Shown: positions 16,855 to 26,712 of the stretch, piece by piece
How positions within the stretch are numbered: position 1 is the first letter of the stretch
Layout of the letters: every line of letters begins with the position of its first letter
Assembly: GCA_050230475.1 (NCBI GenBank)
Contig: JBFLGF010000189.1
Coordinates: 1-57,667 of the forward strand
Source of the DNA: Ancylonema sp.
Taxonomy: Eukaryota
Reading direction: 5' to 3'
Length of the DNA: 57,667 nt
Notes under the pieces: generated by a model
Databases searched by the model: none
Told to the model about the DNA's origin: nothing
Seen by the model: the letters and a program-made list of their open reading frames with translations, nothing else
Program-made: the position numbers and the translations under genes

Positions 16855-19505
16855 TCACGTGGCAACCTCTCGAATGGCGGAAAGCGGAAGAGAGGCAAGT
16901 ATCTCCGGAGGCCATGGGTTGTGTTGTCGAGATTTCACCGTCTTCAATGCTCGCCACACAACACTCCCGCACTTAAAGCCGCTACCAAAGGCGATTTGCC
17001 ACACCCGGTCGCCTCTTTTGACCCGACCCTTCGCCTCGCAATACGCTAGCTCGTACCACACGGAAGCCGAAGAAACGTTTCCGAATCGATAGAGCGTCGC
17101 AAGGGAAGGCTCCATGTGGCGATCTTGGAGCCGCAAGTTCGCTTGCATCGTATCAATAACACTCTTTCCGCCCGCGTGAATGCAAAAGTGTTGGAAGGCC
17201 GTCGTGAAGTCCGGCACGTACGACTTGGCCTTGCGATTGAATATGCGCTTGTGAAAAGAACGAAAGACAAAGCGGAGTTGCTCCGAGAATGGCAAGACGA
17301 GTGGGCCAAGCACGGTGAGGTTCATCTTCACAGCCTGTGGATTAAAAAATTTAAAAAAAAAAAAAAAACAAACAAAAACAAGACAAAAACTTTTGAAACT
17401 TTGTTTATGGAAAGCTTGCATCTTCAATAACATAGGCTATTGAAAAGAAACGCAAGCATCCTCATTCATATGATTTTCTTATGTATTCTAGGGAGGGTAA
17501 ACGTGGCTTGACAAAGTATAATATTATGGAGACTCAAGACACGTACATATTCTGTTTTGCATGATCATATCGTTGATACTCGGATCGTTCATTTGCATCG
17601 GGATACTTCATTTACACCTCGGTTTACTTAATCTCTCGGGTCTATTTTAACAACCGTACTCACTTTTATATTTGTTTTTTAGAAAAGGAAGGCCTCTTTA
17701 GGCAACCACGCGAAGTTTCATGTTTAATTTGTAAAAAGGAGGCCTCTTGAAGCAAGCTTTCATCGATAACATTCATAGCTAGCATCGATAATATGCATAA
17801 CTTTTATTGATTGCCACCATTATTGGAGACGTCGTCCCCTCTTATCATCCCAAAAACGTGAAGCGGGGAAGTTTTGTAAGATAAATCAGTTTGAAGCAAG
17901 GGTCTAGTGGAAATAAAATTCACCTTGCCCGCGACTCCCATGAGCGACTTGGAGATTGACACGCCGAGCTCCCCATCTTCGTCCTCCTTGGCTTGGACGC
18001 ACGCGTACGCGTCGTCGTCGGCCCCACAATGCGTCCGTACGGTGTGAAGGAGTTGGTACTTGGCCCGCCGTCGATCTTGGGGGCGGTTGGAGAGGAGCAC
18101 CGCGGAGCAGCCCATGCGGAAGAGACAATTGGTGATGAGCATGTCGCGCCGCTTGCCAAAGTAGTAATTGCGCGAAATGTTCTCCGTGCTCACCAAGAGT
18201 GCGCGAGAATTGGGGTGATTGGCCAAAATGTCTTTGACTAGACCGACACCCAGCATCGATGCACTGTCACAAGTACGAGGAAGTATGTAAAAATATTGGT
18301 AAGATACGACGGGAAGACAAGAAATCAAAATAAAAGGATGGCGTGGATTTTCAGCACTTCCAATTATGTGCCCATCGATACATATTTGTAAGGGATTTCC
18401 AATCAAATTGACCAGATGTACTTTTCGGTCACACATAGCTCAAGATGCACACCGAGGTACTTGCTGATTACGTCAAAGATCTAAAGACTTTGGCACTCAT
18501 GGTTTGTGATCCACGAGCACAAGTTGTTTGCTTTGAAGATCCAGCAAGCTTTTCTAAGGAGGGTAACAAATTTTGTATGATACAAATCAGCAAGACACTT
18601 ATGTTAGTATATGATTTGTCAAACCGGAAGGTGCATGTATATCACCTGCATCCCATGCCTCCCAGATTGTAGGAGATAACGGAGCTCTTGAGTTTGAAGT
18701 GGTTGACGACCATGGCTGCAAGGGATGGCATTGGGCAGAATAGAGTGCAATTGACAATCACAATGTCGATCTCGCAAGGCTTCAATCCCGTCCGTGCGAT
18801 CAGATCCTCCACCGCGTCAAACACGACCGTCTGCGCCTCCCGATTGGCCGCACCAACCGACCTGTCGGGTGGCACCATCCGAAATTCTAGCGGGACGTAC
18901 GTCTCTTGTCCGAATCCAGACTTCTCCATGACCTTCATCTGGAATTCGCGGCTGGCGTCATCAAATGCATCGTTTGTAGCGATCGAATCCCTGAAATTCT
19001 CGTACGACAACTTCATTCGTTCGTCTTTTGGAATGCAGCATCCAAAATCGATCAAGTACACCGACCGGTTCCCCCCCCGTACAACCCAGCACGCCAAGAG
19101 ACCAGCCACGAAGCTTCCTAGAAGCAGAGCACCGATCGGCACATTACTGACGATCCTCCCACTCCAATATGTGCCATCTACTTTCGTCCACATCTGTGGA
19201 TCAGCATCGATGGTTTCCGGTAGCGGCTTCGCAGAAAAGTAGACGACGGGGTATCCAATGAGGTACTCCTTGGCAACTTCACCCAGGCTTCCTATATTAG
19301 ATTTCTCCCACCTGTCTGATATCGATCCCCACAAATTCTGGGCTTCGGTCGCGATACTATCAATAGACACATCTCGCACGCCCAGGGTTGGCCCAATCCA
19401 CTTTATGTACGCAGCCACTGTCAGGATAATGAGCGTAGCATTCCGAATGGACCACCAACTCTTGGCAGGTCCAGGACCTACAGTGCCGCCACTTTCTCAT
19501 GCCAT
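16855..19505 (-). CDS. KCS: 3-ketoacyl-CoA synthase (FAE1/KCS-type very-long-chain fatty acid condensing enzyme), 3 exons; 5' end ambiguous
   Basis: Exons 19505/19418-18646, 18263-17924 and 17334-16855 give hydrophobic N-terminal segments, [36 protein letters not shown] (catalytic Cys), [23 protein letters not shown] (His), RFGNVSSAS (Asn) and [11 protein letters not shown]. The best-context ATG (19505) is followed by an in-frame TGA at codon 3. Confidence 0.9.
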
Positions 19506-20693
19506 TGTTTTTCAGAGCTGAATGACAGAAAGCTCTGACTTTCCACGAGTGCTGAATGGGAAGCGTTGACTATGCAGTGCCGAAAGCTCATTGAAGTGTC
19601 GAATTCGTGGCTAGTCATTCCACTGCATATAAAACACCGCAGTCAGAAGCTGGAGTGACGTAGCCTCGTGTATACGCCTCGTGCAACAAGAGTGTCCCGA
19701 CGGTGGAAGATCACTTTTGTGGTCCACGTCGACATAGCTACTTTCCGTCCCCTTCGAAGATATCCACGACCGAGTACAGGAAGATGGGTTCTGTGCACAG
19801 GAGAGGTTATCGTTAATATTTATTAACTGGGTACTGATTTCAACGGGATCGTTCGGTACGACAAGTTTGTTTATGCTATCGAATATGTCTCGCGGCTCCT
19901 GCCGTACATTACGCACCACTCGACACCTCGTACCCATCAATGTGCAACCTAGAGTGCTCCCCGGCTTGGATTCTGTAAACATCTGTATATTTTGTTCCCC
20001 CCCCCGAGAAAATGACGTGTTTTCATGTTGGTAGACTCTACCAACGTATCGGTCGGTATTAGGGCGGACACACCAGTTCAATAAATATCTATCGATTTCA
20101 GCATCCTGTCGGTGGGAGGCGGTAGAATTACACATGGGGTCCACGTGGGGTCCACGTCGTACTATTTGTCTCATCTGGAACATCAATGAAACCGCGGTCG
20201 TTCATTGCCGCCGATTCGAGGTGAACGGATGATTCAAAGTGCGTCAGAGAGAGCATTTTGTCGATGGACGGTCCAGACCAAGAACAATCAATGATGTGGT
20301 CGCACGTCCGCCGCTGCCGTTAAAATTTGATTTCTCCCAGTTTTTCCACGTTGAATTTCCAGGGAATCCTTTGTCGTACTTAGGGTTGTCAGCGAATGAC
20401 ACGTGTTTGGTGTAAGGATGTTTTGTCGGTAATAACAAGATACGTCTGTCGAACTTTCATCGAAAACAAATCATCCGTGAAGGGGCTGGGAGCCTAGAAT
20501 AACACTCCTGACGTAGACGACAACTCGACATTATCGACACTGGTATACGGTGCGTCGCTCCAGAGAGCTGTGATATTCAAAGGTACTCTATCTCAACTCT
20601 CAGTAAGAACATGATGGTAGAGTTGTGCTGATCCAGAAAGGTGTTACATCTGCGAGAAGTATACGTTGTGTCAATTCAGTTGCAGAAGTCAAG
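19506..20693. promoter_or_regulatory. Candidate bidirectional promoter between KCS and FAAL-ACP-PKSIII
   Basis: The ~1.2-kb head-to-head spacer contains G-box CCACGTGG (20141-20148) within a short CACRTGGGGTC tandem, GACACGTG (~20398) and several other ACGT cores. Function is inferred only. Confidence 0.4.
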
Positions 20694-26600: not shown

Positions 26601-26712
26601 GACCCGAGCCAAGGCCCGCGCAGAAGGAAAAAAAATGAATCCTCAGTGGGGGGTGGCGCTGGGGTTCGGGCCTGGAGTGACTGTGGAAGGGGCATTGCTT
26701 CGTATGCTCTAA
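20694..26712 (+). CDS. Fatty acyl-AMP ligase - acyl carrier protein - type III polyketide synthase (chalcone synthase superfamily) fusion, 10 exons, ~1215 aa
   Basis: Exons 20694-21258, 21835-22031, 22213-22391, 22546-22594, 23019-24038, 24385-24489, 24642-25161, 25407-25825, 26004-26416 and 26532-26712 are all GT-AG bounded with matching phases (3648 nt, no internal stop). FAAL motifs: AFLQYTSGSTSDPKGV, SWLPQYHDMGLI, PNFGLELC, NGAEPV, YGLAE, GEIWIRSPSVALGYW, LRTGDLG, GRMKDLII, IPKTTSGKIRR. ACP-like segment LSSLGLTSLSSVEV. PKSIII motifs: GTANP, GCYAG (Cys 25718), FGDGAAA, VHPGG (His 26340), FGNMSS (Asn 26554), GFGPGVT. Confidence 0.9.

Follow-up and report, generated by a model that had tools for sequence, protein, structure and literature searches.

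A predicted self-loading FAAL-ACP-type III polyketide synthase fusion beside a 3-ketoacyl-CoA synthase gene in the streptophyte alga Ancylonema

A stretch of 57,667 nucleotides from Ancylonema sp. (contig JBFLGF010000189.1 of assembly GCA_050230475.1, analysed at full length and here called the window) carries a plus-strand gene in which a fatty acyl-AMP ligase (FAAL), an acyl carrier protein (ACP) and a type III polyketide synthase (PKS) are joined in one reading frame. Judged from its domains and residues, the product is probably an alkylpyrone or alkylresorcinol synthase that loads itself within a single chain. Pfam placed AMP-binding matches in exons 1, 3 and 5, followed by a DIP2-like AMP C-terminal domain, PP-binding and both chalcone synthase domains. 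The gene has 10 exons (20694-26712) and a frame open for 1215 amino acids, and nine of nine introns are GT-AG, splicing having been called at canonical sites. A preliminary description of this DNA had named the same FAAL-ACP-PKS architecture, and the domain order in the open frame bears it out. It had also placed a 3-ketoacyl-CoA synthase (KCS) gene head-to-head with the fusion about 1.2 kb away, between unrelated flanking genes; the two start codons indeed lie on opposite strands with 1188 nucleotides between them, and the flanks were identified as a kinase gene (kinase motifs, with DUF7477 at the C terminus) and NOP10 (PF04135). The features of the pair are as follows.

16855..19505, minus strand: KCS (FAE1-type 3-ketoacyl-CoA synthase), 559 codons in three exons (19505-18646, 18263-17924 and 17334-16855)
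19497..19499, minus strand: in-frame TGA at KCS codon 3, a Leu codon in sequencing runs X1, X2 and X3 and a probable base error of the window
19506..20693, no strand: divergent intergenic region of 1188 nucleotides, single copy, with five CCACGT (G-box-like) hexamers
20694-21258, 21835-22031, 22213-22391, 22546-22594 and 23019-24038, plus strand: exons 1-5 of the FAAL-ACP-type III PKS fusion
24385-24489, 24642-25161, 25407-25825, 26004-26416 and 26532-26712, plus strand: exons 6-10 of the fusion
20694..21020, plus strand: N-terminal extension of the fusion, residues 74-110 of which resemble the N terminus of Closterium stand-alone FAAL-ACPs
21006..24489, plus strand: FAAL domain (about residues 105-700), with P-loop, adenylation motifs, terminal catalytic Lys motif, W/P/M/F pocket, and FAAL-specific helix and insertion
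24762..24953, plus strand: ACP domain (residues 746-809), Pfam PP-binding, with Ser775 at 24849-24851
25044..26709, plus strand: type III PKS domain (about residues 840-1215), with Cys983, His1131 and Asn1164

The fusion is independent of any splice call, because exon 7 holds both the ACP and the start of the PKS. Moreover, a single independent contig of 11,782 nucleotides, from a run that is possibly the window's own sample, spans 18166-29500 without a gap, and thus neither the adjacency of the two genes nor the fusion is a mis-join of this window. The long contig differed from the window at 21 sites in 11.3 kb, and 16 of the 20 differences listed were of the C>A/G>T class, which is the pattern of a systematic error. 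At the coding differences V1007F and D1066Y, the letter of the long contig fits PKS homologs better than that of the window. Given the C>A/G>T differences, the source assembly may hold false stops at other places.

Profiles and predicted fold place the loader in the FAAL rather than the CoA-ligase class, as the preliminary description had supposed. When compared with solved structures in the PDB, exon 5 matched FAALs with E values of 1e-59 to 1e-31, whereas its CoA-ligase matches were no better than 1e-7. Among NCBIfam models those for FAALs led, at 243 bits versus 56 bits for the canonical CoA-ligase model PRK08314, although PRK07768, a model titled long-chain-fatty-acid--CoA ligase, scored 184; the FAAL models all stayed below their full-length cutoffs since only part of the protein was scanned. 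An AlphaFold model of exon 5, with a predicted local distance difference test (pLDDT) score of 85, had OlsA-FAAL and FadD32 as its ten best fold matches (template modeling scores of 0.81 to 0.84) and showed a helix at the place of the FAAL-specific helix. A segment aligned with the FAAL-specific insertion of OlsA FAAL at similar length, with low pLDDT there. FAAL residues that block the CoA pocket and line the ACP pocket are named in PMC8460268 (available in part), which also states that FAALs reject CoA thioesters. In the numbering of that paper, and in a register set by motif spacing, W, P, M, F, R and P of the loader match W224, P226, M231, F279, R258 and P259 of E. coli FAAL, with bulky W, M and F at the CoA pocket and prolines at the alternative pocket. 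By analogy with FAAL biochemistry, the fused FAAL is predicted to transfer acyl groups to holo-ACP and to reject CoA.

The closest solved FAAL structures carry C16-C20 ligands, and OlsA FAAL holds C16-C18 adenylates. The loader carries Ala at a position whose replacement by Ile, in OlsA FAAL structures, accompanies a C16 ligand in place of C18. According to the available part of PMC12820801, chain length is not tracked by FAAL phylogeny, and the preferred chain length of the fused FAAL cannot be called from the nearest structures.

The ACP scored 30.5 bits for PP-binding, against a Pfam cutoff of 20.8, and was 47 to 50% identical to the ACPs of Spirogloea fusions versus 27 to 35% identical to stand-alone ACPs. 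Residues 74-110, upstream of the loader core, were 66 to 71% identical to the N terminus of the Closterium stand-alone FAAL-ACPs. The fusion protein showed no membrane helix or clear targeting signal, and its two weakly hydrophobic stretches belong to the cores of the enzyme domains. A search of the ESM Atlas returned only generic clusters, for ACP (0.78) and FAE1 (0.93).

The hallmarks of a type III PKS are intact, namely the Cys-His-Asn triad, Phe215 and the GFGPG loop. In chalcone synthase (CHS) numbering, the PKS reads V132/N194/I197/T211/F215/G256/L264/V265/S338, a set almost identical in Closterium and Spirogloea. The CHS coumaroyl pocket (Thr132, Thr194, Thr197, Gly211 and Phe265) is replaced by V, N, I, T and V, and the changes at 132, 197, 264 and 265 are hydrophobic and would suit an aliphatic starter. 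ASCL enzymes require Gly at the Thr197 position (Gly225 of PpASCL; PMC8551677, available in part), where the window has Ile; Gly was present in eight of eight ASCL-like rows, which were recognized by neighbour-gene names and residues rather than by curated labels. The ASCL Ala/Val240 position, which by our mapping is CHS 212, holds Ala, a match that is insufficient alone. An approximately unbiased test rejected placement of the window PKS inside the ASCL clade (p about 1e-144, log-likelihood difference of 61). The ORS diagnostic residues are Gln218, Val/Ala277 and Ala286 in PpORS numbering (PMC11316218); at the corresponding CHS positions 197, 256 and 265, taking an apparent offset of 21, the PKS has Ile, Gly and Val.

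The preliminary description had presumed an enzyme of ORS or ASCL type and, from that, a role in cuticle or sporopollenin precursors. The diagnostic residues of both types are absent and the tree rejects the ASCL clade, and since the PKS is by its residues neither ORS nor ASCL, the cuticle and sporopollenin link is not carried over. Its wider proposal of a type III PKS with a lipid starter fared better, as loss of the coumaroyl-pocket residues together with the attached FAAL points to an aliphatic starter and to an alkylpyrone or alkylresorcinol product. The ring type and chain length of the product are not predictable from the present data.

In the mechanism that we propose, the fused FAAL would use ATP to activate a long-chain fatty acid in its free form and, as FAAL biochemistry suggests, pass the acyl group to the fusion's own ACP without CoA. 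The acyl group would then move from the ACP to the PKS cysteine in the manner of type III PKSs, and two to four rounds of extension with malonyl-CoA would yield an alkylpyrone or an alkylresorcinol-type lipid. The neighbouring KCS may share the promoter region and may widen the fatty-acid pool. The ftp system of Myxococcus xanthus, which Hayashi et al. (2011, cited in PMC10896814) are said to have described, reportedly combines a FAAL, an ACP and the type III PKS FtpA to make alkylresorcylic acid. The fusion resembles it in having the same three activities and, by prediction, a FAAL-primed type III PKS for phenolic lipids; whereas the ftp proteins are separate, bacterial and encoded in an operon that also holds tailoring genes, the intron-rich Ancylonema gene encodes a single eukaryotic polypeptide whose PKS is of plant lineage, and no tailoring gene lies nearby. 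In the cylindrocyclophane pathway (CylA/CylB/CylI), a FAAL loads an ACP, and a type III PKS takes the ACP-bound chain and forms a resorcinol (PMC11837247 and PMC8086630, both available in part), but there type I PKS modules intervene and the proteins are separate. The moss enzyme PpORS and ASCL/LAP5/LAP6 are, like the fused PKS, plant type III PKSs, and share with it a predicted use of long acyl starters; they differ in being stand-alone and CoA-fed and in their diagnostic residues, which the fusion lacks. We conclude that the logic of a FAAL-primed type III PKS is already known from bacteria and that what is new, within the literature searched, is a one-chain fusion in a streptophyte alga. 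Its place is telling for evolution, as the host probably belongs to the algal group closest to land plants.

When FAALs were searched, proteins of Mesotaenium, Spirogloea and Closterium ranked first, and this ranking and the trees below point to a zygnematophyte as the probable host. Six of the 40 long proteins with a type III PKS also had an AMP-binding domain, and FAAL and PKS occurred together in 12 of the 319 proteins compared, one of them from Physarum and three from Spirogloea muscicola (P0002, P0012 and P0017), the latter with the same FAAL-ACP-PKS order. The orthologous Spirogloea fusions share the PKS clade and most active-site residues with the window's fusion but are about 48% identical to it and are without the N-terminal motif. 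Among enzymes that are neither ORS nor ASCL, PMC11316218 stars three Spirogloea sequences as fusion proteins, with the partner trimmed and unnamed; these (Spimu1 9263, 2401 and 17478 of its Table 1, to judge from the identifiers) are probably the three fusions found here. A literature search, which left subscription journals mostly outside its coverage, found no green-lineage protein described in which FAAL, ACP and type III PKS are fused, and the available parts of PMC8133574, PMC12820801, PMC11837247, PMC8086630, PMC10896814, PMC12288465, PMC7619713 and bioRxiv 10.1101/835561 do not mention one. The fusion is thus conserved, and within the literature searched its only trace seems to be an asterisk in one published table.

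Stand-alone FAAL-ACPs are present in Spirogloea, Mesotaenium and Closterium. A careful FAAL tree of 18 rows, which left out the protist fusions described below, P0017, P0008 and most bacterial and unnamed rows, recovered a zygnematophyte clade (100/99) in which stand-alone FAAL-ACPs, those of Spirogloea included, grouped apart from the fused ones (92/93), and therefore the fused type likely split off before Spirogloea diverged. By this tree the fused FAAL appears to have diverged long ago, as a paralog, from the stand-alone FAAL-ACP of zygnematophytes. A careful PKS tree (21 of 40 rows) joined the window with Closterium (97/94) and then with Spirogloea (91/89), in a clade sister to the sampled land-plant CHS/ASCL enzymes. 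The Closterium FAAL-ACPs and the closest Closterium PKS lie on different contigs. The simplest reading of the trees is one old fusion with subsequent loss of the loader in Closterium, although two separate algal fusions are also conceivable.

Several observations weigh against a fused, self-loading synthase of long-chain lipids. The ACP motif is without the usual Asp before Ser775, having T instead (T or S in the algal relatives). Ile197 and Val265 are bulkier than the residues that widen the tunnel for very long starters, Gly in ASCL and Ala in ORS, and this analogy gives no reason to expect a C20+ starter. The closest PKS, at 54% identity over 429 columns, is the orthologous Closterium enzyme, which has no fused loader, so that a PKS of this type can exist without the fusion. 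The fused FAALs did not form a starred clade in the careful tree (72 in an earlier quick tree of 49 rows), the PKS tree contained no ORS sequence, so that its placement as sister to land-plant PKSs could change, and some exons are absent from the Spirogloea gene models.

Fusions with the same FAAL-ACP-type III PKS order were also found in Physarum polycephalum (P0184) and in unnamed JGI/Logan proteins. Both their FAAL and their PKS branch away from the algal ones, and they probably represent an independent fusion. This separate set of FAAL-(ACP)-type III PKS proteins, from Physarum and apparently protists, comprises P0184, P0152-P0154, P0199, P0236, P0238, P0318 and P0320, and the literature found by our search does not describe it. 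P0321, from Percolomonas, is a 2570-amino-acid protein running from FAAL to type III PKS. The conserved stand-alone FAAL-linker-ACP family of zygnematophytes (P0001, P0003, P0004-P0009, P0175 and P0322) is sister to FAAL proteins of oomycetes and diatoms, and in Closterium such a FAAL-ACP could feed the unfused PKS in trans. A flavin-monooxygenase tail of P0001 and plant PKSs fused to pentatricopeptide repeat or helicase sequences were treated as gene-model merges. A metagenome scan gave 77 loci at 49 to 55% identity that were chalcone-synthase-like by residues; none of the 77 had a FAAL match, none was orthologous, and none had a KCS match above 40%.

The KCS gene matched FAE1_CUT1_RppA and ACP_syn_III_C in Pfam, retains the catalytic residues Cys286, His453 and Asn486, and begins with two helices predicted from hydropathy to cross the membrane, separated by a loop of about 80 amino acids; these are features expected of a FAE1-type KCS. 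It is 48 to 56% identical to 11 retrieved KCS proteins, nine of them named land-plant proteins and two unnamed; no named algal KCS was among the matches listed. Identity to other type III PKSs is about 23%, making KCS and PKS distant homologs. In the window, codon 3 reads TGA, but base A stands at 19498 in runs X1 and X2, which are one sample and possibly the window's source, and in run X3, a metagenome of another study at depth 2.7, and the codon then reads Leu. The TGA probably stems from a wrong base in the window; a nonsense allele peculiar to the strain from which the window derives is also conceivable. A downstream start at Met106 and an upstream spliced exon were each considered and dropped once the runs showed an open codon 3.

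The preliminary description had counted a dead KCS pseudogene among the outcomes that would undo its proposal. It is very improbable that the KCS is a pseudogene or that the fusion is an artefact of assembly or prediction. For a pseudogene speaks the TGA in the window; against it speak the sense codon in three runs from two studies and a remaining frame that is open with its catalytic residues kept. An artefactual fusion is contradicted by the shared exon of ACP and PKS, by the one contig over the locus and by the same fusion in Spirogloea. We conclude that the KCS beside the fusion is most probably a live gene for an elongase.

A live KCS next to the fusion need not be its partner. Head-to-head spacing of about 1 kb is weak evidence in this window, because two unrelated divergent pairs are equally close: NOP10 at 28305 (minus) and a GPI8-like peptidase C13 gene at about 29035 (plus), about 0.7 kb apart, and a MATE gene at about 36272 (minus) and an ARID gene at about 37346 (plus), about 1.1 kb apart, with starts taken from open reading frames. 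The preliminary description had further set the introns of the pair apart from those of most neighbouring genes, and this held in part. The introns are AT-rich (36 to 39% GC), and the two genes are poor in sense-strand G runs (0.4 to 0.5 per kb, versus 1.3 to 5.7 in six neighbouring spans). A lower complexity is not supported, at a 3-mer entropy of 5.7 to 5.8 of 6 (a value without a like-for-like intron control), and the supposed contrast in telomere-like repeats fell away, as such heptamers number 0 to 3 per 2 kb everywhere, the fusion gene itself having 2 in that length. The intergenic region holds five CCACGT hexamers versus 0.81 expected, a count reached in 3 of 500 shuffles for one of six motifs and uncorrected.

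Depth is flat at 129 across the intergenic region. In both genes the protein-coding exons, among them those for the ACP and for the KCS N-terminal extension, are overlain by two to five further contigs of run X2. These contigs were gathered at an 80% identity cutoff, which narrows the identities seen, and their counts are not copy numbers. The long paralog pieces listed have near single-copy depth, leave the intergenic region uncovered, and keep intron positions where joints were listed; introns of paralogous contigs lie at the same places as in the fusion gene. Each of the two genes thus seems to have several paralogs about 80 to 83% alike. Such parallel copies fit co-duplication of a unit and equally fit genome duplication or separate expansions.

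KCS acts on CoA thioesters within the elongase of the endoplasmic reticulum (ER), and its product is a CoA thioester. Because FAALs take free acids, a thioesterase and three further elongase enzymes would be needed between the two, and no thioesterase, reductase or other elongase gene was seen between the kinase gene and NOP10. That the KCS is a true precursor supplier of the fusion is accordingly no more than a tentative proposal. The two genes would form a cluster, a claim compatible with the self-loading synthase and additional to it, if the KCS, the ER elongase and an unlinked thioesterase provided very-long-chain acids for the FAAL under co-regulation from the shared 1.2 kb. We regard this as possible though somewhat doubtful. 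The intact KCS of the three runs, the adjoining of two lipid condensing enzymes among housekeeping genes, the extra contigs on the exons of both genes around a single intergenic region, the absence of G-run introns from both genes, and the loader Ala at the OlsA FAAL position noted above all favour it. It is opposed by the unrelated divergent pairs at 0.7 and 1.1 kb, by a PKS that is neither ORS nor ASCL, and by the rejection of CoA thioesters by FAALs (PMC8460268, available in part) with no thioesterase or reductase between the flanking genes; moreover, linkage of the paralogs is not visible, the 80% cutoff makes divergences look alike, and whole-genome duplication gives the same picture. The same literature search found no KCS-PKS cluster described in streptophyte algae.

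There is close to an even chance that the genes are neighbours by accident. The KCS would then be an elongase paralog like any other, serving membrane or wax lipids, and the fusion would draw on the common C16/C18 pool of free fatty acids. The window is gene-dense with frequent divergent pairs, the KCS core is ordinary in its identity to retrieved KCSs, the closest solved FAAL binds C16-C18 adenylates, and the separate contigs of the Closterium FAAL-ACP and PKS indicate that linkage is no rule in this pathway. Chance accounts poorly for the apparent parallel expansion of both genes, for their shared intron style, and for an unusual KCS N-terminal extension that is kept in at least one paralog. 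It is improbable that the genes are co-regulated in parallel, either serving one wall or stress programme without handing over substrate, the KCS through wax or very-long-chain lipids and the fusion through a phenolic lipid, or with the KCS passing a 3-oxo-acyl intermediate to the PKS. The same adjacency and copy evidence would apply, no thioesterase would be needed, and the G-box-like hexamers in the shared region lend slight support.

Outside the coding parts of the pair, a MITE-like element at 16133-16375, 480 nucleotides downstream of the KCS stop, has 29-nucleotide terminal inverted repeats (93%) and a summed contig depth of about 169,000 versus 129 in the bin, indicating very many copies. 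A second repeated element lies in intron 1 of the fusion gene at about 21460-21790, with a bin depth of 866 to 1224 versus 129. A repeat scan found no informative repeats within the KCS-fusion pair, and an Rfam scan of 14500-29000 gave no match. Farther along the window are a Copia-type gag open reading frame with a zinc knuckle (43446-44489, minus strand) and a degenerate long terminal repeat retroelement at about 46400-51200 (minus strand) with reverse transcriptase, RNase H and integrase. Upstream of that retroelement, an open reading frame at 49825-50376 has weak likeness to a C5 DNA methylase (E value of 0.32, below the cutoff); retrotransposons carrying DNMT have been reported from charophytes (PMC5890265, available in part).

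The origin of plant type III PKSs, and their products before flavonoids and sporopollenin, are described as an open question in PMC8133574 and PMC11316218. In Mesotaenium, the most UV-induced 4CL-like gene is a FAAL (bioRxiv 10.64898/2026.02.10.704744), and in Serritaenia a non-ORS PKS is strongly UV-induced while flavonoid-assigned genes are down-regulated (PMC11156808); from the available parts of these sources, neither the FAAL nor the PKS could be matched to the fusion family. A wider picture, which we consider unlikely, is that the fusion and a dedicated KCS went through several duplications together, giving a repeated two-gene cluster for very-long-chain phenolic lipids induced by UV or desiccation, and that plant CHS-type enzymes arose from an ACP-fed lipid synthase. 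A metabolic cluster of this sort would be rare for a streptophyte alga, should the KCS pairing hold. The self-loading synthase, if true, would offer a natural one-chain loader-synthase for making alkylresorcinols, and it could help to account for FAAL and PKS transcripts whose induction by UV in zygnematophytes is so far unexplained. A conserved self-loading enzyme in zygnematophytes would name its own starter class, that of fatty acids.

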